Shown here piece after piece: positions 381 to 12,649 of a stretch of DNA of 64,000 nt. The notes below the pieces were generated by a model. The model worked only from the letters and a program-made list of their open reading frames with translations, was not told the origin of the DNA and ran no database searches. The stretch is from NCBI GenBank assembly GCA_018509705.1, contig GCA_018509705.1_3630.1; one strand, 5' to 3'. This stretch comes from a phage. The position numbers and the translations under genes were made by a program. Position 1 is the stretch's first letter. Each line of letters opens with the position of its first letter.

Positions 381-809
381 TTAACCCTCATCGAAGCAAA
401 CCATGGTGTACTCAAGCCCTTGATGGTTAAGCTTATCTTGTACATACTCCATGTGACAGTATTTTACAACAGCTCCCTTTTTGCTTCTATCCCACTTGCC
501 AGTGTTCGGATCAAACCGTGGAAAAATGAACTTATGATCCTTCTCTCTGAACTTTGGCTTAATGTTTTCAGGCAGATCACTGTAAATAGCTACTGCTTTA
601 GGCCATAGTCCACCCTCACCTTCCAACTGTGGGGTTGTTCTTCGGAACATAACCACAGAGCTGTGGGGGTCATCAATAATTTTAAGTGGCATCAACTGCA
701 AGAGGAACGACTTGCCAGACCCTGCGGCACCGCCGATTACCAAAATATCTGCATCGTTTTCTAGGATCATCTTCTGCTTTTCAGAACACGGTCCGTAAAT
801 CTTAGACAT
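381..809 (-). CDS. P-loop ATPase fragment resembling a terminase large subunit N-terminal domain, ending right after a Walker-B-like FDEG
   Basis: Walker A GGAAGSGKS preceded by Q-rich motif, C-terminus MVCFDEG then stop; only 142 aa. Confidence 0.4.
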   Translation of the reverse strand: MSKIYGPCSEKQKMILENDADILVIGGAAGSGKSFLLQLMPLKIIDDPHSSVVMFRRTTPQLEGEGGLWPKAVAIYSDLPENIKPKFREKDHKFIFPRFDPNTGKWDRSKKGAVVKYCHMEYVQDKLNHQGLEYTMVCFDEG

Positions 810-1912: not shown

Positions 1913-1989
1913 TGGTCTCCACGGAGTGATTCGAACACTCGACCTCCTGATCCCAAATCAGGCGCTCTACCAAGCTGAGCTACGCGGAG
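1913..1989 (-). tRNA. tRNA-Pro (anticodon UGG)
   Basis: Cloverleaf readable on minus strand: 7-bp acceptor, T-loop GTTCGAATC, anticodon loop TTTGGGA, CCA encoded. Confidence 0.7.
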
Positions 1990-2000
1990 TATTTATTATT

Positions 2001-2076
2001 TGGTGGCCCTGGGTGGAATTGAACCACCGTCTGGCGATTATGAGTCGCTTGCTTGAACCTTCCAGCTACAGGGCCA
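2001..2076 (-). tRNA. tRNA-Met or Ile2 (anticodon CAU)
   Basis: Minus strand; T-arm GGTGGTTCAATTCCACC, anticodon loop CTCATAA, CCA encoded. Confidence 0.6.
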
Positions 2077-2153
2077 TGGTGCTGATGGCAGGACTTGAAC
2101 CTGCAACCTATTGATTACAAATCAATTGCACTACCAATTGTGCTACATCAGCA
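2077..2153 (-). tRNA. tRNA-Thr (anticodon UGU)
   Basis: Minus strand; D-arm GCACAATTGGTAGTGC, anticodon loop TTTGTAA, T-arm GCAGGTTCAAGTCCTGC, CCA encoded. Confidence 0.65.
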
Positions 2154-2157
2154 AAAA

Positions 2158-2256
2158 GGTGCTAGGTGATGGAATCGAACCACCTATGTATTCAACGACT
2201 ACCTCGTCTATTTTCAGGATTAAAAATCCTCGCCCTTGCCAAAGGGCTTACCTAGC
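2158..2256 (-). tRNA. Aberrant tRNA-like element (good acceptor/D/T arms, irregular anticodon arm, over-long variable region); possible pseudo-tRNA
   Basis: Acceptor GCTAGGT/ACCTAGC pair, T-arm GGTGGTTCGATTCCATC, but anticodon stem does not close canonically and about 30 nt lie between anticodon arm and T-arm. Confidence 0.25.
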
Positions 2257-2354
2257 TCAGTATGTTGACCATGTTGCTAGTCGGCGATGACGACTGTAAC
2301 ATTTGATAATCCGGTTCTGCTTCCGGCTTTCGCTTAATTACAAGGTCAACAATA

Positions 2355-2445
2355 TGGCTGAGGGTAATGGAATCGAACCATCATCAAGTCATCCTCAACG
2401 GGACGGTTTTCAAGACCGCTTGAGCACCATTGCTCCCTACCCTCA
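2355..2445 (-). tRNA. tRNA-Ser (anticodon UGA), type II with long variable arm
   Basis: Minus strand; acceptor TGAGGGT/ACCCTCA, anticodon loop CTTGAAA, long variable arm, T-loop TTCGATT, CCA encoded. Confidence 0.6.
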
Positions 2446-2559
2446 TTTATAAACAATACTGATAATGACACTGATTTTCGAGCAGTTAGTGACTAGTATA
2501 AACGACGATAAATATCAATGCCATTATCTGTATGATTTATGCATTTAAAACTATAAATT

Positions 2560-2646
2560 TGGTGGGGAGTGGTGGAGTCGAACCACCCGAGTCGCAATGA
2601 CAATAGATTTACAGTCTACACCGCTACCCCTACGGGATAACTCCCC
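2560..2646 (-). tRNA. tRNA-Tyr (anticodon GUA), long variable arm
   Basis: Minus strand; acceptor GGGGAGT/ACTCCCC, anticodon loop CTGTAAA, T-arm GGTGGTTCGACTCCACC, CCA encoded. Confidence 0.6.
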
Positions 2647-2650
2647 AATT

Positions 2651-2725
2651 TGGCACCCCGTACTGGACTCGAACCAGTGTCAACGGCTTAGAAGGCCGCT
2701 GCTTTATCCACTAAGCTAACAGGGC
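2651..2725 (-). tRNA. tRNA-Arg (anticodon UCU)
   Basis: Minus strand; D-arm GCTTAGTGGATAAAGC, anticodon stem-loop GCGGC-CTTCTAA-GCCGT, T-arm ACTGGTTCGAGTCCAGT, CCA encoded. Confidence 0.65.
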
Positions 2726-5570: not shown

Positions 5571-5617
5571 ATCTCCTGATTCTCCTTGTGTGGCAATTTT
5601 CTTTAAAATAGCAGGGA

Positions 5618-6172
5618 TTACTCCCCGCTGTCAATAGCAAAACTCATTGCAATACGGTATGCCTCTTCTAATGGTAAGAGTCTCCCCCACACATCCCAAC
5701 CGACATCAAACTGTCTGCCAAACAACTGTTGTGTGGTTCCGTGAGCATGACCGAACAGTTGGACTGATCCGTGAGGCTTTCTGTTCCACTTTGCAAACTG
5801 GTAATGGCTCATACAGATCAAATTCTTGTTGTGGCGAAGCTCGTAATAATCTACAACCTCATGACCGAACTCTTTCATAATTCTGACAGTCGTCCTTGTG
5901 TCATGGTTACCACGAACAAGAATAATATGTCCGTTCAACATATTTAGAACATCTGGGAGCAATTTGTTGATATTCTTATCATTAGTGCACGCAATATCTC
6001 CCAAGTGAAACACAGTGTCTGCAGGTGACACAACAGAGTTCCACTTGGTGATGATTCCCGCATTCATACTGTCAAGATTGTGATCATACTGAGATCTGTG
6101 TTTTTGACATGAGTCGAACTCCATGACCCGCTGGTGGAGAAAGTGTGTGTCGCTTGTTACAAAGTATTTCAT
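5618..6172 (-). CDS. calcineurin-like metallophosphoesterase (Ser/Thr-phosphatase fold)
   Basis: Motifs SDTH(F), LGDI, GNHD in order; start at MKYF with GAGGA RBS, 7 nt after stop of upstream kinase gene. Confidence 0.7.
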   Translation of the reverse strand: MKYFVTSDTHFLHQRVMEFDSCQKHRSQYDHNLDSMNAGIITKWNSVVSPADTVFHLGDIACTNDKNINKLLPDVLNMLNGHIILVRGNHDTRTTVRIMKEFGHEVVDYYELRHNKNLICMSHYQFAKWNRKPHGSVQLFGHAHGTTQQLFGRQFDVGWDVWGRLLPLEEAYRIAMSFAIDSGE

Positions 6173-6179
6173 ACATTCC

Positions 6180-6590
6180 TCATTTAAGTTTAATGCAGTT
6201 TTTAAGCTGGCGTTCCATACGATCCACAACCCTGTCTGGAACATCATGAATGCTTTTATTACCATGGCGGTTTTCAACCACGATCACGGTATAACTATAC
6301 CCATGACTGATCGCCATGTCAATATATTCTTGCACATATTTTTCTTTTGTAAACGTATTACTTACCACGATACGGTCGTATCCCATACGCATCATATCTT
6401 CTACGTTATCTTTGCACCATTTTGCTGCAAGTGTTACTTTACTTGCATCCCAGTTGTAATTTCCATCATCGTCGTACCAGAACATGTCGTTCTCAAAATG
6501 TGGATACAGACCTTCTAAAGATAGCGCATTTGCCAGTGTTGATTTGCCAGACCCTGGTAGACCACGCACGATATATAGCATTTTAGACAT
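6180..6590 (-). CDS. P-loop kinase, polynucleotide-kinase-like
   Basis: Walker A GLPGSGKST near N-terminus; GGAGG RBS before ATG at 6590; directly upstream of the phosphatase. Confidence 0.55.
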   Translation of the reverse strand: MSKMLYIVRGLPGSGKSTLANALSLEGLYPHFENDMFWYDDDGNYNWDASKVTLAAKWCKDNVEDMMRMGYDRIVVSNTFTKEKYVQEYIDMAISHGYSYTVIVVENRHGNKSIHDVPDRVVDRMERQLKNCIKLK

Positions 6591-6711
6591 AGTAATCCTC
6601 CGTTTTAATTTCAACGATAGTATACCCAACTGTTTTGTTAATTTCAAGTGTTGACACTAGGTTATTTGTGTGGCAGGATAGACTGACAAAATGACAAATG
6701 AGGAATGTATA

Positions 6712-7626
6712 ATGAAGTATTTTAATGCAGACGACCTAGTTGACAAAGGTCTTGTAACCAGCAGATATTACCCAGATCTTGGGTTAAAGATCTATAAATA
6801 TGCCAGAAAAGTATTCTACAACAACTTATGGCATTTGTCTCCTCGATTACTGGAGTGCCGAGGCATTGTTGTCGGTAATGAAGGAAATGTTGTGGCATGG
6901 CCCTTCACAAAAGTGTTTAACTTGGGAGAAAACTCCACCAACCTGCCTGACAATAAGCTTGTGACGGCGGTAGAGAAAAAGAACGGATTCCTTGGTGTGG
7001 TGTCATCTCATAAAGGTGAACTATTGTTCTCAACAACCGGGTCTCTTGATTCTCCATATTGTAACCTTGCAAAGGAAACCATCCAGGAGCAATGCAGTAA
7101 TTTAGATCTTATCAAGAAGGTTATGGGCAATGAAAACATGACATTCATGTTTGAAATTTGTCACCCTTCAGATCCGCATATTGTTCAGGAAGATCATGGT
7201 GCATATTTGATAGGTTGCAGATATAATGATTCTGGAATAATGCTACCAGAAGCAGCTTTAGATGGGATTGCCAAATACCTTGGTGCAAAACGTCCTCACA
7301 CTGTGCGTGAAATTCCGTTCAGTTATGCAAAAGAATTGGCTGCAGAAACAAGAGGTGAAGGGTATATGATTCGTAAGCCTTACTACCCTTATGATCTGCA
7401 GCTGAAGATTAAGTCTCCATACTATCTGGCACGGAAGGCCGTAATGAGGGGTAAAGCTTGGAAGATTTGGGATGATGATATCTTTAAACGTGTTGACGAA
7501 GAGTTTTACGGCATGGTAAACTTCATTCGTAACAACTACACAGAGGATGTATGGAACTGCCTCCTGGAGCAGGAACGCCGTGAGATACTTGATTACTATT
7601 TCCACAACGAGAACTATATGCAATGA
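6712..7626 (+). CDS. RNA ligase (covalent nucleotidyltransferase superfamily)
   Basis: Motif I KKNGF (KxNG), motif IV EGYMIRK, motif V LKIK; AGGAA RBS before ATG 6712 (alternative start 6691). Confidence 0.6.
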   Translation: MKYFNADDLVDKGLVTSRYYPDLGLKIYKYARKVFYNNLWHLSPRLLECRGIVVGNEGNVVAWPFTKVFNLGENSTNLPDNKLVTAVEKKNGFLGVVSSHKGELLFSTTGSLDSPYCNLAKETIQEQCSNLDLIKKVMGNENMTFMFEICHPSDPHIVQEDHGAYLIGCRYNDSGIMLPEAALDGIAKYLGAKRPHTVREIPFSYAKELAAETRGEGYMIRKPYYPYDLQLKIKSPYYLARKAVMRGKAWKIWDDDIFKRVDEEFYGMVNFIRNNYTEDVWNCLLEQERREILDYYFHNENYMQ

Positions 7627-7973
7627 AGAAGTTGATTGTGTGGCTAGATGACTTGAGAGATCCGTCAAATTATGGGCTCCCAGACGCTATTTGGCTAAAG
7701 AATTCCTCCGAGTTTATGGATTTTATTAACGATAATAAAAAGCTCTACAGACGCGTTTCTGAGTGGCATATGGACAACGACCTTGGAGAGGTATTCGAAG
7801 GGTACGATTGCCTATCCATGTTGGAGGAAAAGTTTGTATTTGGTAAGCCTCCTGTAGTTGACAACGTGAAGATTTTCGTGCATACTTCTAACCCATCAGC
7901 GGCTCGTAAATTCATGCTTGCGACTGACTCGTTTAAAAAGTTTGGAATAGAGATTAAACAAAACATCTACTGA
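7623..7973 (+). CDS. small receiver-domain-like protein
   Basis: IVWLDDLRDP ... HMDNDLG ... HTSNP spacing resembles a REC-fold acidic pocket; overlaps stop of RNA ligase. Confidence 0.3.
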   Translation: MKKLIVWLDDLRDPSNYGLPDAIWLKNSSEFMDFINDNKKLYRRVSEWHMDNDLGEVFEGYDCLSMLEEKFVFGKPPVVDNVKIFVHTSNPSAARKFMLATDSFKKFGIEIKQNIY

Positions 7974-7981
7974 GGACACTT

Positions 7982-8743
7982 ATGCGACGACTGATTGTTA
8001 TCTCCGGTGCTGGTTTGAGTGCTGAATCTGGTATTCCCACTTTCCGATCTGGTAGCACTGCAATGTGGGAGAATTTCAGCATCGATGAGGTGTGCAACAT
8101 CCACACCTTTGCCAAGAACTACTATAAGGTGCATGACTTTTACAATGCACGTCGTGTAGCTTTAGGCAGTGTTGAGCCTAACCTTGCACATCTTCGGATC
8201 GCTGAGTGGTATTCCCGCTGGTCTGGTCGTGTGATCAACCTTACCACCAATGTAGATGATTTGCTGGAGCGTGCTGGTGTAAAACATGAAGATATTTTAC
8301 ATGTCCACGGGTATTTGCCAGAAATAGTCTATGAGGACGATGAAGGAAGTGACGTCATTAAGGACATTGGATACTCTGAGGTAGACGCAGGAAAGTATAC
8401 CTGGGTTAAGCCTAATGTGGTGTTCTTCGGAGAAGTAGCTCCGAAGTATACAGACATGTATGACCTGTTGACTTCTCTTACGAGCAATGATATGGTTATC
8501 CTTGTAGGGTGCTCCAACACAGTTATCAATTTTAACTGGGAGCTATTCCCTGCCTGCAATAAGGGAACCAAACTACTGATCGTTAATAAATACGACTCAC
8601 AGCATCTAGAGGAGAATGGCATTTCACGTAGTGATATTTACCAGTATGAGGATCGCGGCATCCCAGTTTGGTTTAACGGTGCGGTTGATGCCTTCTCTGA
8701 TAAAACATTCATTGAGACTGTAGAAAACTTTATGGAACTTTAA
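7982..8743 (+). CDS. Sir2-family (sirtuin-like) NAD-dependent protein
   Basis: ISGAGLSAESGIPTFR matches sirtuin GAGISxxSGIPxFR; TTNVDDLLERAG and HG motifs follow. Confidence 0.7.
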   Translation: MRRLIVISGAGLSAESGIPTFRSGSTAMWENFSIDEVCNIHTFAKNYYKVHDFYNARRVALGSVEPNLAHLRIAEWYSRWSGRVINLTTNVDDLLERAGVKHEDILHVHGYLPEIVYEDDEGSDVIKDIGYSEVDAGKYTWVKPNVVFFGEVAPKYTDMYDLLTSLTSNDMVILVGCSNTVINFNWELFPACNKGTKLLIVNKYDSQHLEENGISRSDIYQYEDRGIPVWFNGAVDAFSDKTFIETVENFMEL

Positions 8744-8756
8744 AAGGAGACCTTTA

Positions 8757-9470
8757 ATGCTGAATACTAAATTAATTGACAACCTGGAAAAACTATCCCA
8801 ACCTGAAAACTACCTTTGGTCTGCCAACTGGGTGGAAAACTGGAACCGTGTGGCAGCTAAAGTGAAAAAATCATACACACCATTCGAATTACAGCTTAGC
8901 TTCATTGAGGAAGAGTTCAATGAAGTTTTGGAAGAGCTGGAGAAAGGTGATGGTGGAGATCACCTGCTAAAAGAGGCCTGCGATCTTCACGTTGTCACAA
9001 GTTATGCAGCTTATCTTGTTAATGACAATCACGAAAAGTGGTCAAACCTGTTTGATAATCCACGAGGTCTTAAGTTCAAGATCGGTGAGTTCTATGACAC
9101 ACTGATCGCTGCGAAAAACACATCCAAGCAAAGAGCGTCAGCTTACCGTTTAGCGGAGTTGTCAACAGCTTTGCTGTTCCAGCTTCGCGGCGATGTGTGC
9201 GGGATGATGCGTAAGGTTCTCAAATCGAATGACAGCAAGTTTGCACGGGTCAACCATCTACGGTATTCACACGGTGCCAGTGCAGATATGCCTGCTGAAC
9301 AACTCATCGAGTTGGAGATTAAAGATCTTGAGCGACGCTTTGATGGTCGATATGAAGGTTTTGTTGCTAAGGAAGAATTCTACAACGGTAATAAAGTTAT
9401 CATATTCCTCGACAGTAAAGGTAAGATTATGAAGCCTTCAAGCTTCAAGGATGTAACAGAATATATTTAA
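8757..9470 (+). CDS. hypothetical protein, possible MazG/HisE-like all-alpha NTP pyrophosphatase
   Basis: FIEEEFNEVLEELEK ... EACDL resembles EExxE...D motif; weak. Confidence 0.3.
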   Translation: MLNTKLIDNLEKLSQPENYLWSANWVENWNRVAAKVKKSYTPFELQLSFIEEEFNEVLEELEKGDGGDHLLKEACDLHVVTSYAAYLVNDNHEKWSNLFDNPRGLKFKIGEFYDTLIAAKNTSKQRASAYRLAELSTALLFQLRGDVCGMMRKVLKSNDSKFARVNHLRYSHGASADMPAEQLIELEIKDLERRFDGRYEGFVAKEEFYNGNKVIIFLDSKGKIMKPSSFKDVTEYI

Positions 9471-9476
9471 TAATAT

Positions 9477-9500
9477 AGCCGGGGCGATCCCGGCTTTACT
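9477..9500 (+). terminator. Rho-independent terminator
   Basis: Hairpin AGCCGGG-GCGAT-CCCGGCT followed by T-rich stretch. Confidence 0.5.
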
Positions 9501-9534
9501 TGTTTCGGAAAGTATGCAAGTGAGGTAGAAAGTT

Positions 9535-9843
9535 ATGTACAAGCACTCCAGAGATCTTGAAAACGATGCTGTGTTTGGGGATCAGATGAAAGAATTGGTT
9601 AAACTTATAGGTAGGATAGAGGATAAGTTTGACACTAAGATCTACATCGACAGCAAAGTATTCAACCACAAAATATGGACAAATCTGTGTGTTGGACTAC
9701 ATGGAGATAAAGATGTGGTAAATTTAGTTGTAATTAAGTTCATAGTGTGGCAGAATAAAACTATAAATTATTACGATCCACACCTGCTTGTTTACCCGAT
9801 AAAAGACCTATTAGAGAAGGAGGACTGCAATGCCGTTATTTAA
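9535..9843 (+). CDS. hypothetical protein
   Basis: ORF track with AGGTAGAAAG upstream. Confidence 0.4.
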   Translation: MYKHSRDLENDAVFGDQMKELVKLIGRIEDKFDTKIYIDSKVFNHKIWTNLCVGLHGDKDVVNLVVIKFIVWQNKTINYYDPHLLVYPIKDLLEKEDCNAVI

Positions 9844-10099
9844 TCTTGCTAAACCTGTAGAAGCACACCAGTTTGACGGAAGCTCTTCATCAGTATCTGA
9901 TCTGCAACGGTGGATTGATACAGGTGTGTTTACATCGTCACCTGTTCGGACCAGAGATCTTCGTCGTATGTGTGAGCTTGTAGAGCCGTTTGGTAACCTA
10001 GTCTTGTACCAGGGTGATTGGCTTGTTGATTTTATGGGTGACTGGTTGGTAATGAGTAAAGAAGAGATGTTTAAAATTTTTAAGGAAGAGGTAGAGTAA
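9830..10099 (+). CDS. hypothetical protein
   Basis: ORF track; overlaps neighbours by a few nt (operon-like). Confidence 0.4.
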   Translation: MPLFNLAKPVEAHQFDGSSSSVSDLQRWIDTGVFTSSPVRTRDLRRMCELVEPFGNLVLYQGDWLVDFMGDWLVMSKEEMFKIFKEEVE

Positions 10100-11364
10100 T
10101 GCATCAATTCAAAACAACACTTTATGCTCGCAATAAAGACGGGTCCATCCAGATGTGGAAAGTAGATACAAGCGGCAACGAGGTTATTGTTGTGTTCGGC
10201 AGGGTTGGTGGCGCTGTACAATCAAAAACCACAAAATGTGAAGCCAAAAACATCGGGCGATCCAACGAAACTACAGCAGAAGAACAAGCTGTTTTAGAGG
10301 CGCAGTCTAAATGGGAAAAGCAAGTCCGGCTGGGTTACAAAGAAAATGTCGAAGACCTTGAGGCCATTGACATTTCACCTATGCTGGCGCAAGATGCTTC
10401 GAAAAAACCACACGCTATTGTGTATCCATGCCACCTGCAACACAAACTTGACGGGAACCGTTGCTTTGTCAAATTCGTAGACGGTGTACCTAAATTCATC
10501 TCTCGCGGTAACAAAGTGTATGAGCCGAAAGGTAACATCCTCCGTGAGCTACAAGACCTGCATGAAGAAACAGGCTTTGATGAATTTGATGGGGAGTTCT
10601 ACATTCACGGTTTACCGTTGCAGAAAATAACCTCCCTCGTTAAGAAATGGCGTAGTCTGGAAGACATTGAGAAAGAAATTGATAAGGATTTCATGGCAGA
10701 CATAAAACGCCGTGAGAAAGCGATCAAGGCCGGAGAGGAGACATGGAAAGACTTCAACAAGGTTGATCATCCGGTTTATGAAGAACCTGTCCGTGATTCT
10801 GATCGGTATGGAGGTTACTGCTCTTATGACCTGAAACTGATGGTGTTCGATGTTCCTGATTGCATCCATCGCTGGGAAGATCGGGCCACAAATCTTCAGG
10901 AAGTTATTGATTATTGTGAAGTTAACCATCTCACAAACGTCGAGGGTGTTCCTTTCAAGATCGCCTACAACGAGGAAGAGGTTCGCAACTCCATCGGACA
11001 GTACATGCAGGAAGGTTATGAAGGATCTATTATTCGTAACTTCTGTGGCACCTACGAATACGGTCAACGCTCTACTGATCTGCTCAAGTGGAAACTGTTC
11101 ACCGATGTTGAAGCAAAAGTGATCGGTGTTGAAAAAGATAAAAACGGGGAAGGTGTTCTTATCTGCGAAGAGAAAGATGGGACACAATGCAAATGCAAAA
11201 TGAAAGGCACTTTTGCCGTAAGGAACTACGAAAAATGCTGCTCATATGTTGGCAAATTTATCACGATAAAATTCCAACAGCGTACGGTGGACGGTGTGCC
11301 TCAATTCCCTGTGGGTATCGCATTCCGCAATCTTAATCCAGAAACTTGGGAGGTGCTGGAATAA
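10099..11364 (+). CDS. ATP-dependent DNA ligase
   Basis: Motif I KLDGNR, EGSIIRN (motif IV-like), C-terminal OB-like VPQFPVGIAFR. Confidence 0.7.
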   Translation: MHQFKTTLYARNKDGSIQMWKVDTSGNEVIVVFGRVGGAVQSKTTKCEAKNIGRSNETTAEEQAVLEAQSKWEKQVRLGYKENVEDLEAIDISPMLAQDASKKPHAIVYPCHLQHKLDGNRCFVKFVDGVPKFISRGNKVYEPKGNILRELQDLHEETGFDEFDGEFYIHGLPLQKITSLVKKWRSLEDIEKEIDKDFMADIKRREKAIKAGEETWKDFNKVDHPVYEEPVRDSDRYGGYCSYDLKLMVFDVPDCIHRWEDRATNLQEVIDYCEVNHLTNVEGVPFKIAYNEEEVRNSIGQYMQEGYEGSIIRNFCGTYEYGQRSTDLLKWKLFTDVEAKVIGVEKDKNGEGVLICEEKDGTQCKCKMKGTFAVRNYEKCCSYVGKFITIKFQQRTVDGVPQFPVGIAFRNLNPETWEVLE

Positions 11365-11487
11365 TGTAGGAAGGTCTAGTAGGTAACGGTAACCAATTGA
11401 ATGATGGTTTTCAATTGGCACCTACATAACCACACTATGCAGTGTTGTTGATCGGGTTAGTTATGAGTAAACTGGAGAGTATGAAAA

Positions 11488-11976
11488 ATGAAACTTGATA
11501 AAAATGTTCAACGAAAAGCTTTCTTGGATATGATCGCATATTCGGAAGGAACAGATAATGGTAGACAACCTACCAAGGATCGGGGGTACGATGTCATAGT
11601 CGGCGGCAAGCTGTTCAGCGATTACAGCAAGCATCCCGGTGTTTACGTTAAGCTAAATGCTAAACTTACCTCCTCCGCTGCTGGGCGTTACCAGGTTTTG
11701 GAGAAGTTTGCTAAACACTACATGAAACAGTTAGGATTACCAGATTTTGGCCCTGCCAGTCAGGACAAGATTGCGTTGCAACTGATCCGTGAGTGCAAGG
11801 CTCTCGCCGACATTGATGAAGGGCGTATTCATCAGGCCATTTATAAATGCCGCAGCCGCTGGGCAAGCTTCCCACCACCGCCAGGGGCTGGAAAGCTGTA
11901 CAATCAGCGAGCAGAAAGTATAGACAAGATGCTGGAGATCTTTAAGAGGGCAGGTGGAGTTGTTACAGATGAGTAA
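11488..11976 (+). CDS. endolysin, lambda R-like lytic transglycosylase/lysozyme
   Basis: RKAFLDMIAYSEGTDNGRQ and GAGRYQ motifs typical of this lysozyme family. Confidence 0.8.
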   Translation: MKLDKNVQRKAFLDMIAYSEGTDNGRQPTKDRGYDVIVGGKLFSDYSKHPGVYVKLNAKLTSSAAGRYQVLEKFAKHYMKQLGLPDFGPASQDKIALQLIRECKALADIDEGRIHQAIYKCRSRWASFPPPPGAGKLYNQRAESIDKMLEIFKRAGGVVTDE

Positions 11977-12649
11977 CGGGATTGACTGGTGGAGTGTCTT
12001 TAGATACGATACAGGCACTGGAAGGTTGTTTTGGAAGTCCCCACCAAAAAACAAACCTCAACTAATGGGAAAGGAGGCTGGATGTACTAACAACGGGTAC
12101 AGGGATATAGTCTATCGTGGCGTGCATTACTACAGGCATAGATTGGTGTGGGAGATGCATTATGGACCAATCCCAGAAGGGTACGAAGTTGATCACATAA
12201 AGCCACTTTTCTATTCCGACGGTGTTGCGGATGATAGGGTAGAAAACCTACAACTGTTAACACCAGAAGAAAATGCAAAAAAGGCGGCAGATGACGGATG
12301 CCTGGCACGCAAGATACCTAAATCCAATACTGGACATTTGGGTGTATATTTTCATGCTAGATCTGGAAGGTATGCTGCTTTTGGTAAGGTAGGTCATTAC
12401 TATAAGAAAGACCTAGGAGAATACGATACCTTAGAAGAGGCCATTGCTGCTCAAAAGTCTTTTGAAAGTGGCACGTTTGTCAGGGAATATCGTGGACAGC
12501 CTTTAGGGAGGGATAAATCTAGAGGTGTCAGATTTGAAGCAGATAGGGGCAAATGGAAAGTAACTTTCAGAGGAAAAACGCTAGGCAGGTTTGACACCAA
12601 AGAGTCTGCTGAAGCGTGTTACGCAAAGGCTCTTACTGAAAGCTTGTAA
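11954..12649 (+). CDS. HNH homing endonuclease with AP2-like DNA-binding region
   Basis: YEVDHIKP ... ENLQLLTPEEN HNH motif; C-terminal basic repeats. Confidence 0.65.
   Translation: MELLQMSNGIDWWSVFRYDTGTGRLFWKSPPKNKPQLMGKEAGCTNNGYRDIVYRGVHYYRHRLVWEMHYGPIPEGYEVDHIKPLFYSDGVADDRVENLQLLTPEENAKKAADDGCLARKIPKSNTGHLGVYFHARSGRYAAFGKVGHYYKKDLGEYDTLEEAIAAQKSFESGTFVREYRGQPLGRDKSRGVRFEADRGKWKVTFRGKTLGRFDTKESAEACYAKALTESL

Follow-up and report, generated by a model that had tools for sequence, protein, structure and literature searches.

The window examined here is a stretch of 64,000 nucleotides (nt) of phage DNA (GenBank assembly GCA_018509705.1, contig GCA_018509705.1_3630.1), and the gene in question encodes a Sir2-like protein, or sirtuin, set among genes of RNA repair. 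The window is assigned to an rV5-like Escherichia coli myovirus (Vequintavirus), and over bases 5600-11400 it shares 97.6% identity with phage DrSchubert and 95.1% with rV5. The protein is predicted from its sequence to be an active-looking sirtuin that consumes nicotinamide adenine dinucleotide (NAD+), with the NAD site and the catalytic His intact. Iyer et al. 2022 proposed phage sirtuins of this kind as KptA/Tpt1-like removers of the 2'-phosphate of RNA (PMC9503650). Their RNA-repair model is adopted here as the most likely one, at rather less than even confidence, with a substrate, catalytic steps and roles for the cyclic-phosphate-processing receiver-like protein (cREC) and for the second open reading frame (ORF2) that we infer. 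The two ORFs at the centre of the analysis are the following.

7982-8743, plus strand: sirtuin (homologue of rV5 gp080), 253 amino acids, identified by Pfam, PHROG, PDB and AlphaFold2 (AF2)
8757-9470, plus strand: ORF2, an all-alpha nucleoside triphosphate pyrophosphohydrolase of the MazG/HisE/dimeric-dUTPase superfamily (rV5 gp081), 237 amino acids, identified by PHROG and acidic motifs

The initial annotation had treated positions 7982-9470 as one Sir2 feature; the sirtuin stands as the first part of it, and a second ORF lies inside that span. The NAD-binding signature reported there is borne out, with Pfam, PHROG, PDB and model matches all in agreement. The stretch GAGLSAESGIPTFR is found at residues 9-22 (nt 8006-8047), NVDDL at residues 90-94 (nt 8249-8263), and HVHG at residues 107-110 (nt 8300-8311). 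The Pfam family SIR2 (PF02146) is matched over positions 1-178 of a 180-position profile (E 3e-27; 96.2 bits against a cut-off of 24) and is carried by all of the 120 homologues listed, and PHROG 2162, named 'Sir2', is matched with E 1e-109. Sequence matches in the PDB include E. coli CobB (1s5p, E 2e-21) and, at about 1e-21, SIRT5 and the archaeal Sir2-Af1/Af2. The AF2 model has a mean local confidence (pLDDT) of 90.8 and a predicted template modelling score (pTM) of 0.88. Its best Foldseek matches in the PDB are CobB, Af1 and SIRT5 (E 1e-18 to 1e-15, TM-score about 0.75), which place it with the canonical six-strand deacylase type nearest CobB, and not with the ThsA/DSR-like forms. Sequence and model matches together rule out a chance motif match and identify the ORF as a genuine sirtuin, not a member of another Rossmann family.

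The NAD pocket is made up of G9-A10-G11, S16, F21-R22, N90/D92, S178-N179 and N202; the catalytic residue is His109, and an FGE motif occupies residues 149-151. Across 42 homologues of 50-60% identity, G9-A10-G11, S16-G17, F21-R22, N90, D92, H109-G110, F149, E151, S178-N179 and N202 are invariant, and G150 is nearly so. The pocket and catalytic residues are also kept almost throughout 150 representatives of clusters formed at 50% identity. Comparison of the window genes with two close relatives (rV5, locus L001, and a second phage, L002) by the Nei-Gojobori method gave the sirtuin a ratio of nonsynonymous to synonymous substitution rates (dN/dS) of about 0.06, which argues that the gene is functional. 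Domain fusions were of little help as a functional clue, as ten longer homologues show SIR2 alone, plus one WG repeat. A homologue is present in 992 of 50,697 phage records searched with tblastn (about 2%), spread over several families, and the matches by host genus include Escherichia (374), Salmonella (287), Klebsiella (131) and Vibrio (50).

Residues C38, Y54 and R57 align with A86/Y102/R105 of SIRT5 and A76/Y92/R95 of CobB. Residues of this type are the mark of class III sirtuins, in which they hold the distal carboxylate of succinyl- or malonyl-lysine. In the phage proteins, all three are invariant in the 42 homologues, and the Tyr and Arg are conserved in most of the 150 representatives. 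Alignment and model indicate that the phage sirtuin derives from the class III (CobB/SIRT5-type) sirtuins. It shares with CobB and SIRT5 the GAGxS...SGIPxFR signature, the N/D residues, the catalytic His, the FGE motif and the class III anion pocket of a small residue, Tyr and Arg. It differs from them in the absence of the zinc Cys, in an identity of only about 27%, in scores of roughly half the NCBIfam CobB cut-offs or less, and in its setting among phosphoesterases and an RNA ligase. Its best NCBIfam models are those of the CobB deacylase (NF040867, 104 bits against a cut-off of 320; NF001753, 123 against 243). Public entries for rV5 and related phages call the gene 'Sir2-like', a label found in hundreds of records, 'NAD-dependent deacetylase' or 'cobB'; since the scores fall far under the equivalog cut-offs, the 'cobB' names in some GenBank records are over-calls.

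The catalytic His109 is present; the zinc-binding Cys, which the initial annotation named beside it, are absent. Of the only three Cys in the protein (38, 177 and 192), none falls within residues 110-145, where the zinc module sits, and CxxC occurs in that segment in 0 of 119 close homologues. In the alignment of the 150 representatives, the nearest 25 or so are zinc-less, and four-Cys forms dominate farther out. A rough neighbour-joining tree places the window protein in a clade with 25 of 26 representatives zinc-less (at most two Cys), as against 28 of 118 elsewhere. The segment is unchanged in length in the alignment, and the AF2 model keeps three beta strands there. These comparisons indicate that the beta scaffold was kept and the metal site lost, essentially once. 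The zinc module has been described as needed for canonical deacetylation (PMC12700824). A missing zinc finger in a phage Sir2 was already noted in 2016 in KVP40-like vibriophages, for which deacetylation of Acs was proposed (PMC5107563).

The genes and other features around the sirtuin are listed below. The starts of the kinase-like and metallophosphoesterase genes were set from the rV5 annotation.

6691-7626, plus strand: Rnl1-family ATP-dependent RNA ligase, 311 amino acids (rV5 gp078), first gene of the four-gene unit
7623-7973, plus strand: cREC protein, 116 amino acids (rV5 gp079), identified by Pfam and PHROG
9477-9495, plus strand: terminator-like hairpin with an 8-bp stem, 6 G-C pairs and a T-rich tail, found by consensus scan as a pattern match
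6180-6590, minus strand: P-loop polynucleotide-kinase-like protein (homologue of rV5 gp077), matching Pfam AAA_33 (40 bits), PHROG 2071 and PHROG 505 'polynucleotide kinase'
5618-6172, minus strand: calcineurin-like metallophosphoesterase (homologue of rV5 gp076), matching Pfam Metallophos and Metallophos_2 and PHROG 547 (E 6e-52)
10099-11364, plus strand: ATP-dependent DNA ligase (rV5 gp084), matching Pfam DNA_ligase_A_M and OB_2, directly 3' of Sir2 in several relatives
1913-2725, minus strand: tRNA cluster (Pro, Met, Thr, an odd tRNA-like element, Ser, Tyr, Arg), from ARAGORN, Rfam and the rV5 annotation

Rnl1, cREC, the sirtuin and ORF2 look like one transcription unit, to judge from their spacing and the hairpin pattern. 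The ATG of cREC overlaps the Rnl1 stop (ATGA), 8 nt separate cREC from the sirtuin, with a GAGGA Shine-Dalgarno sequence 5-6 nt 5' of the sirtuin ATG, and the 13-nt gap between the sirtuin and ORF2 holds AAGGAG as its Shine-Dalgarno sequence. The hairpin, AGCCGGGGCGATCCCGGCT TTTACTTGTTT, begins 7 nt past the ORF2 stop and is probably the 3' end of the unit. A promoter scan gave 20 matches against a shuffled expectation of 14.2 +/- 4.5; as this is not above expectation, no promoter is claimed. The initial annotation had put the Sir2 gene immediately downstream of the RNA-repair genes. Sir2 does share a plus-strand unit with Rnl1, and the adjacency to the ligase gives way to a cREC gene that had gone unnoted between them; the kinase and phosphoesterase of the repair set are on the minus strand at 5618-6590, divergent from the ligase.

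The RNA ligase matches Pfam RNA_lig_T4_1 over the full profile (57 bits) and PHROG 562 (E 1e-66), with a dN/dS of 0.04. It scores 40 bits with the NCBIfam T4 RnlA model, for which the equivalog cut-off is 242, and a sequence search of the PDB gave no real match. The cREC gene matches Pfam cREC_REC (PF20274; 54.7 bits against a cut-off of 27) and PHROG 1479, its dN/dS is 0.08, and its product has an acidic WLDDLRD motif near the N-terminus. The cyclic-phosphate-processing activity of cREC is a published contextual prediction (PMC9503650). The kinase-like gene is syntenic with Rnl1 in relatives, and the metallophosphoesterase, a candidate end-healing enzyme for 2',3'-cyclic or 3'-phosphates, stays with Rnl1 and the kinase also where a phage has no Sir2. 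Values of dN/dS for the operon partners are 0.04-0.08, except that ORF2 has no nonsynonymous differences from rV5. Relative to rV5, the ORF2 protein is 100% identical (synonymous divergence, dS, 0.19), cREC 85% (dS 0.95) and Sir2 94% (dS 0.58), and for cREC and Rnl1 the comparison with L002 gives the opposite pattern. Such mosaicism points to recombination breakpoints between adjacent genes of the unit.

A possible MazG/HisE-like pyrophosphatase had been suggested to follow the sirtuin, and ORF2 answers to it. The protein matches PHROG 671, 'nucleotide pyrophosphohydrolase', with E 5e-22, and its motifs E51-E52-E53-x-x-E56 and E73-x-x-D76, which form the EExxE...ExxD metal-binding pattern, are invariant in 17 sequences; its assignment to the superfamily follows from these two observations. 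Its predicted helical catalytic core spans about residues 1-156, with the all-alpha fold based on a four-helix bundle that is seen in dimeric dUTPases and MazG. N158-D159-S160-K161 and a small conserved beta C-terminal part with GKIMKPSSF complete the protein. The Pfam family PRA-PH (PF01503) reached 13.7 bits against a cut-off of 21.3 and MazG (PF03819) gave no match, and PF01503 is a precomputed match in three ORF2 homologues. Searches of the PDB found nothing by sequence and only non-significant hits by Foldseek. ORF2 might also have a plain house-cleaning role on dUTP or other dNTPs. The protein is called 'Sir2-like protein' in MK883717 and MN850627 and 'putative Sir2-like protein (x2)' in MN850646 and MN850593, labels that are annotation spill-over from the neighbouring sirtuin gene.

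According to the RNA-repair model, a metal-independent host nuclease would cleave tRNA or mRNA to ends that bear a 2',3'-cyclic phosphate and a 5'-OH. The cREC protein and/or the metallophosphoesterase would open the cyclic phosphate, the kinase would phosphorylate the 5' end, and Rnl1 would seal the break. A 2'-phosphate left at the junction or at an end would attack C1'' of NAD+ in the sirtuin active site, with release of nicotinamide, and the anion pocket C38/Y54/R57, which receives the succinyl carboxylate in SIRT5 and CobB, would hold the phosphate. The removal of the 2'-phosphate would follow the two-step chemistry of Tpt1/KptA, which is formally parallel to deacylation by sirtuins. The cREC protein would open the resulting cyclic phosphate, and the MazG-like enzyme, or a Nudix enzyme in jumbo phages, would split the pyrophosphate of ADP-ribose. 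The two-step mechanism of Tpt1 is established (PMC6097658, PMC8120803), and its parallel with sirtuin catalysis is what makes the model chemically plausible. Counted in favour of the model are the invariant catalytic residues, the dN/dS of 0.06, the operon packing and the recurrence of neighbourhoods with RNA-end and ADP-ribose enzymes and without a Macro partner. The broader proposition, that a phage sirtuin fold has been recruited to act on RNA and not on protein, would mean a new class of sirtuin reaction and a first biochemical role for cREC; it is put forward more tentatively than the model itself.

The phage tRNAs of the window are plausible clients of the RNA-repair genes. Within their cluster, a tRNA-like element of 97-99 nt (2158-2256, minus strand) lies between tRNA-Thr and tRNA-Ser. 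ARAGORN reports it as 'tRNA-???' with a four-base anticodon, the Rfam tRNA model matches at 2160-2256 with 35.5 bits (gathering score 29), and the rV5 record has no feature at this place. The element may be a class II, intron-containing or frameshift-suppressor-like tRNA. The tRNA-Ser (2355-2445) and tRNA-Tyr (2560-2646) called by ARAGORN fall under the Rfam gathering score.

The context of the gene was surveyed in 80 viral loci with sirtuin relatives, belonging to 32 lineages at 75% identity. In rV5-like phages and their relatives of about 145-150 kb (7 lineages), synteny of the phosphoesterase, Rnl1, cREC, the kinase, Sir2, the DNA ligase and the MazG-like gene persists to identities as low as about 45%. 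All six genes of the neighbourhood published as type 2 lie within 5618-9470 of the window, and this arrangement is syntenic in about 12 related viral contigs. T5 and T5-like phages (5 lineages, more than 25 loci) have none of the rV5-type partners; their Sir2 lies downstream of NrdD, and the gene directly after it encodes an RNA-repair phosphatase of the 'Swiss-army-knife' type (HAD_SAK_2, PF18143, E 4e-19). The C-terminal half of this T5-like gene (locus L003, 6985-7491) is matched by PHROG 18062, the name of which, 'Sir2 (NAD-dependent deacetylase)', is a further spread of the Sir2 label onto an adjacent gene. The jumbo Yersinia phage fHe-Yen9-04 carries an Acb1/2H-like phosphodiesterase, Sir2 and a Nudix-cREC fusion, with NadM-Nudix and Nampt upstream, an arrangement that confirms the published neighbourhood type 1. 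Four more distant zinc-less relatives, all from metagenomes, are placed differently again. On a marine contig, Sir2 overlaps a gene for nicotinamide mononucleotide adenylyltransferase (NMNAT) and a kinase, with HAD_SAK_2 and a phosphoesterase downstream. Of the remaining three contigs, one has the gene order RlaP, Sir2, NADAR, another has an overlap of Sir2 and PTH2 close to RNase T-like and AlkB-like genes, and the third has the order cREC, Metallophos, Sir2.

At least five to six differently arranged lineages thus place the sirtuin beside RNA-end, ADP-ribose or NAD-salvage enzymes, and unrelated phages repeatedly combine the sirtuin with cREC and a pyrophosphatase, which is either MazG-like or a Nudix enzyme. 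By their common relative position, the MazG-like enzyme of rV5-type phages and the Nudix enzyme of the jumbo phage are taken as analogous pyrophosphatases with the same relative role. A Macro partner, which would hint at reversible protein ADP-ribosylation, was found in none of the contexts examined. NAD-salvage genes (phosphoribosyl pyrophosphate (PRPP) synthetase, Nampt, NadM-Nudix) stand beside RNA-ligase or Sir2 blocks in phi92 (L084, 48179-50000), in Otagovirus (L085, 5999-9864) and in the jumbo Yersinia phage (L082, 1-2417). Homologues of Nampt, PRPP synthetase, HAD_SAK_2 and 2H proteins were sought in the 64-kb window, and none was found.

Several observations weigh against the RNA-repair model, and most of them concern linkage. 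In phi92 the repair block (cREC, phosphoesterase, Rnl1, kinase, DNA ligase and MazG-like gene) is intact at 40.6-46.1 kb, and Sir2 lies 27 kb off at 12.3-13.1 kb. Other contigs of about 140-150 kb have no RNA-repair Pfam family beside Sir2, and no RNA-repair family recurs among 104 neighbouring ORFs in 12 more distant viral lineages. The surroundings of Sir2 in KVP40-like Vibrio phages gave no clue either way. Homologues of Rnl1 occur in 769 phage records with a host profile unlike that of Sir2 (Pseudomonas 177, Streptomyces 127, Salmonella 14), and Salmonella phages give 287 Sir2 matches as against 14 for Rnl1. These differing profiles imply that most T5-like carriers of Sir2 have no Rnl1 and that many Rnl1 phages have no Sir2. 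In the Otagovirus phiPsa381 of Pseudomonas, a DNA ligase, an HD protein, a phosphoesterase, Rnl1 and a kinase, followed by PRPP synthetase and Nampt, form a module without Sir2, cREC or a MazG-like gene, from which it appears that the core heal-and-seal set works without these three. In the same module, gp035 (L085, 3702-4271), annotated as a MutT/nudix 'phosphohydrolase', is a homologue of the window metallophosphoesterase (32% identity, E 2e-22), and a homologue of the window kinase (40% identity) is encoded where the annotation has two small hypothetical genes after the RNA ligase.

The records for cREC (357) and the MazG-like protein (324) share the enteric genus profile of Rnl1, which suggests that co-occurrence in the enteric myoviruses is largely one inherited arrangement. 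The linkage argument is also partly circular, since the RNA-repair labels of cREC_REC, HAD_SAK_2 and RlaP are contextual predictions of the same group. As to a non-orthologous displacement of the sirtuin by KptA, a search with the E. coli K-12 protein as seed found true KptA in 98 phage records, mostly jumbo phages; the genes around it in two of them, Erwinia phage RAY and Klebsiella phage KpLz-2_45, have no counterpart in the window module, and Pfam gave only a weak Macro_2 match there. Apart from linkage, the kinase, metallophosphoesterase and Rnl1 are already a complete set of the T4/Pnkp type, which leaves no 2'-phosphate. No experimental test of a phage sirtuin or of cREC was found in the literature searched, the coverage of which left out subscription-only papers. 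Taken together, a link of the zinc-less sirtuin to RNA-end and ADP-ribose processing is supported in several independent lineages, yet it is not obligatory.

The simplest reading of the sequence itself also runs against the RNA-repair model and is that of a deacylase, since all features of the class III lysine deacylases are kept, including FGE and C38/Y54/R57. The sirtuin would then be an NAD+-dependent enzyme like CobB and SIRT5 that, in the course of an infection, takes acyl groups off the lysines of host or phage proteins, most likely as a desuccinylase, demalonylase or deacetylase. This is the main rival and a serious one, if somewhat doubtful. Its targets might be enzymes with acylated catalytic lysines, e.g., Acs or the adjoining RNA and DNA ligases, which are adenylylated on lysine, and the pyrophosphatase would clear O-acyl-ADP-ribose. 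Nudix-type enzymes are able to cleave O-acetyl-ADP-ribose, which is counted for this explanation. By sequence and by structure alike, the protein is matched best by class III deacylases, among them complexes of CobB with peptides, and the best NCBIfam matches are CobB deacylase models, although the scores of 104 and 123 bits remain far under the respective equivalog cut-offs. The invariance of His109, FGE and C38/Y54/R57 agrees with deacylation; the loss of all four zinc Cys across the clade, in 25 of 26 representatives, does not, the beta scaffold being nevertheless kept in the model. Sir2 lies between the RNA ligase and the DNA ligase, directly 5' of the latter in several relatives, one lineage has Sir2 overlapping the gene for PTH2, which is an esterase for acyl groups linked to ribose, and a deacylase would account for the persistence of Sir2 in phages without an RNA ligase. 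The repeated adjacency to cREC, HAD_SAK_2, RlaP and 2H phosphoesterases is left unexplained, however, and the host already has a CobB of its own. Deacetylation had been put forward before for the KVP40-like phages (PMC5107563).

An ADP-ribosyltransferase or NAD+ glycohydrolase (NADase) that serves to take over the host or to counter its defences is unlikely; in that case cREC and the pyrophosphatase would degrade nucleotides derived from ADP-ribose. Such an enzyme might ADP-ribosylate host proteins or nucleic acids, cap RNA or DNA ends with phospho-ADP-ribosyl groups, or consume or convert immune signals derived from NAD+. Some sirtuins have activities of this type, and the NADAR, Acb1-like 2H, Nudix and NAD-salvage neighbours found elsewhere are typical of conflict systems built on NAD and ADP-ribose; cREC and Nudix proteins have also been discussed in the literature as degraders of ADP-ribose-derived signals. 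The protein itself argues otherwise. Its fold is the canonical six-strand deacylase fold nearest CobB, and it keeps the catalytic His where SirTM has Gln and has no Macro partner. The PADLOC models for defence-type Sir2 gave at best 13.8 bits (E 0.006), with no stretch passing, and Pfam SIR2_2 (PF13289) did not match the sirtuin. The identity of a defence-type NADase was rejected on the PADLOC result. The initial annotation had also offered interference with NAD-depleting defence as a candidate function; this finds no backing in the PADLOC search, and an NAD consumer would worsen such defences, not relieve them. No phage sirtuin is among the characterised anti-defence proteins in the literature searched. 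Lastly, a decaying, non-catalytic relic (pseudo-enzyme) kept by linkage is highly improbable: the lost zinc Cys and the varying genomic position in phi92-like phages would fit it, and it was rejected on the invariant catalytic and NAD residues and the dN/dS of 0.06, with the occurrence in 992 phage genomes and the confident fold prediction also against it.

Among known systems, the closest is type 2 of Iyer, Burroughs, Anantharaman & Aravind 2022 (Viruses 14:1977), which describes the same gene and neighbourhood with Escherichia phage V5 and Proteus phage Mydo as prototypes. The type-2 set comprises a sirtuin, a T4-like RNA ligase, cREC, a nucleotide kinase, a pyrophosphatase of the MazG superfamily and an optional calcineurin-like phosphoesterase (PMC9503650). 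The window locus, 95% identical to rV5, is no different in kind. The statement of the initial annotation that a phage copy linked to RNA repair has no obvious textbook role overstated the novelty, as both the neighbourhood and its first candidate function, KptA-like removal of 2'-phosphate, had appeared in print in 2022 (PMC9503650). Gene, neighbourhood and leading hypothesis are all known already, as annotation and as a published prediction that names the phage V5 lineage. What is added here is the structural placement in class III, the C38/Y54/R57 pocket, the essentially single loss of zinc, the fold of the pyrophosphatase and the anatomy of the operon, together with the counter-examples: the displaced Sir2 of phi92, the T5-like carriers without Rnl1 and the Otagovirus module without Sir2.

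Tpt1/KptA, as in the fungal and plant Trl1-Tpt1 pathway with its Cpd1/2H enzyme, likewise works beside a kinase, a cyclic phosphodiesterase and an Rnl1-type ligase. It has the ADP-ribosyltransferase fold with an R-H-R-R tetrad, whereas the phage protein is a Rossmann sirtuin without a KptA-type Pfam match; the phage sirtuin is not a member of Tpt1/KptA, and a functional analogy is all that is proposed. T4 Pnkp-Rnl1 and bacterial Pnkp have the same three activities as are predicted for the kinase, phosphoesterase and Rnl1 of the window, and T4 Rnl1 is a recognised counter-defence enzyme. In the window, by contrast, these activities are encoded by separate genes on two strands, with cREC, the sirtuin and the MazG-like protein in addition, and the Pnkp route is free of NAD+ and leaves no 2'-phosphate. 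The defence SIR2/SIR2_2 NADases (ThsA, DSR1/2, SIR2-HerA, SPARSA; FAM118) resemble the phage protein in belonging to the sirtuin superfamily, in having no zinc and in using NAD+. Their whole beta module is absent, and they have a different small domain and a seven-stranded sheet (PMC12700824). They are also fused or coupled to sensor domains, whereas the phage sirtuin is a stand-alone protein of 253 amino acids in a lytic phage, and none of the defence partners SLOG, HerA, pAgo/APAZ and TIR was found among its neighbours. SirTM is a case in which the sirtuin fold serves a purpose other than deacylation, within an operon that also encodes enzymes for processing the product or the modification. 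It differs from the phage sirtuin in that its catalytic His is replaced by Gln and in that a Macro partner is obligatory; His109 of the phage sirtuin is invariant, and there is no Macro gene among its neighbours in the window.

Some further observations concern the public records and the remainder of the window. About 25 GenBank records (MG0656xx) are named 'Campylobacter phage' (host C. jejuni), several of them unannotated or fragmentary. They are 93-99.6% identical to E. coli rV5-like phages across the locus 5600-11400 and probably carry a wrong label or stem from contamination. In rV5, the annotation joins the large terminase subunit from three pieces, with an HNH endonuclease gene inside (rV5 gp065/gp066; L001, 1-1185), an intron- or intein-like interruption, and the window ORF at 381-809 (minus strand) is the N-terminal ATPase part of the terminase large subunit. 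Directly 3' of the endolysin, an HNH/AP2-like ORF of 231 amino acids lies at 11954-12649 (plus strand). At this site rV5 has the endolysin, then a small transmembrane protein, then an HNH gene, and the HNH/AP2-like ORF is apparently absent there. The ORF is probably a mobile homing-endonuclease insertion that differs among close relatives.

The carriers of zinc-less sirtuins include the model phage T5 and the rV5- and phi92-like phages, which are widely used in therapy and in the BASEL collection. If the protein is a deacylase, phages would actively rewrite the lysine acylation of their host. If it acts in the manner of Tpt1, sirtuin chemistry would reach nucleic acids, and phages would own an RNA repair of the fungal type, which leaves a 2'-phosphate, to set against anticodon nucleases.

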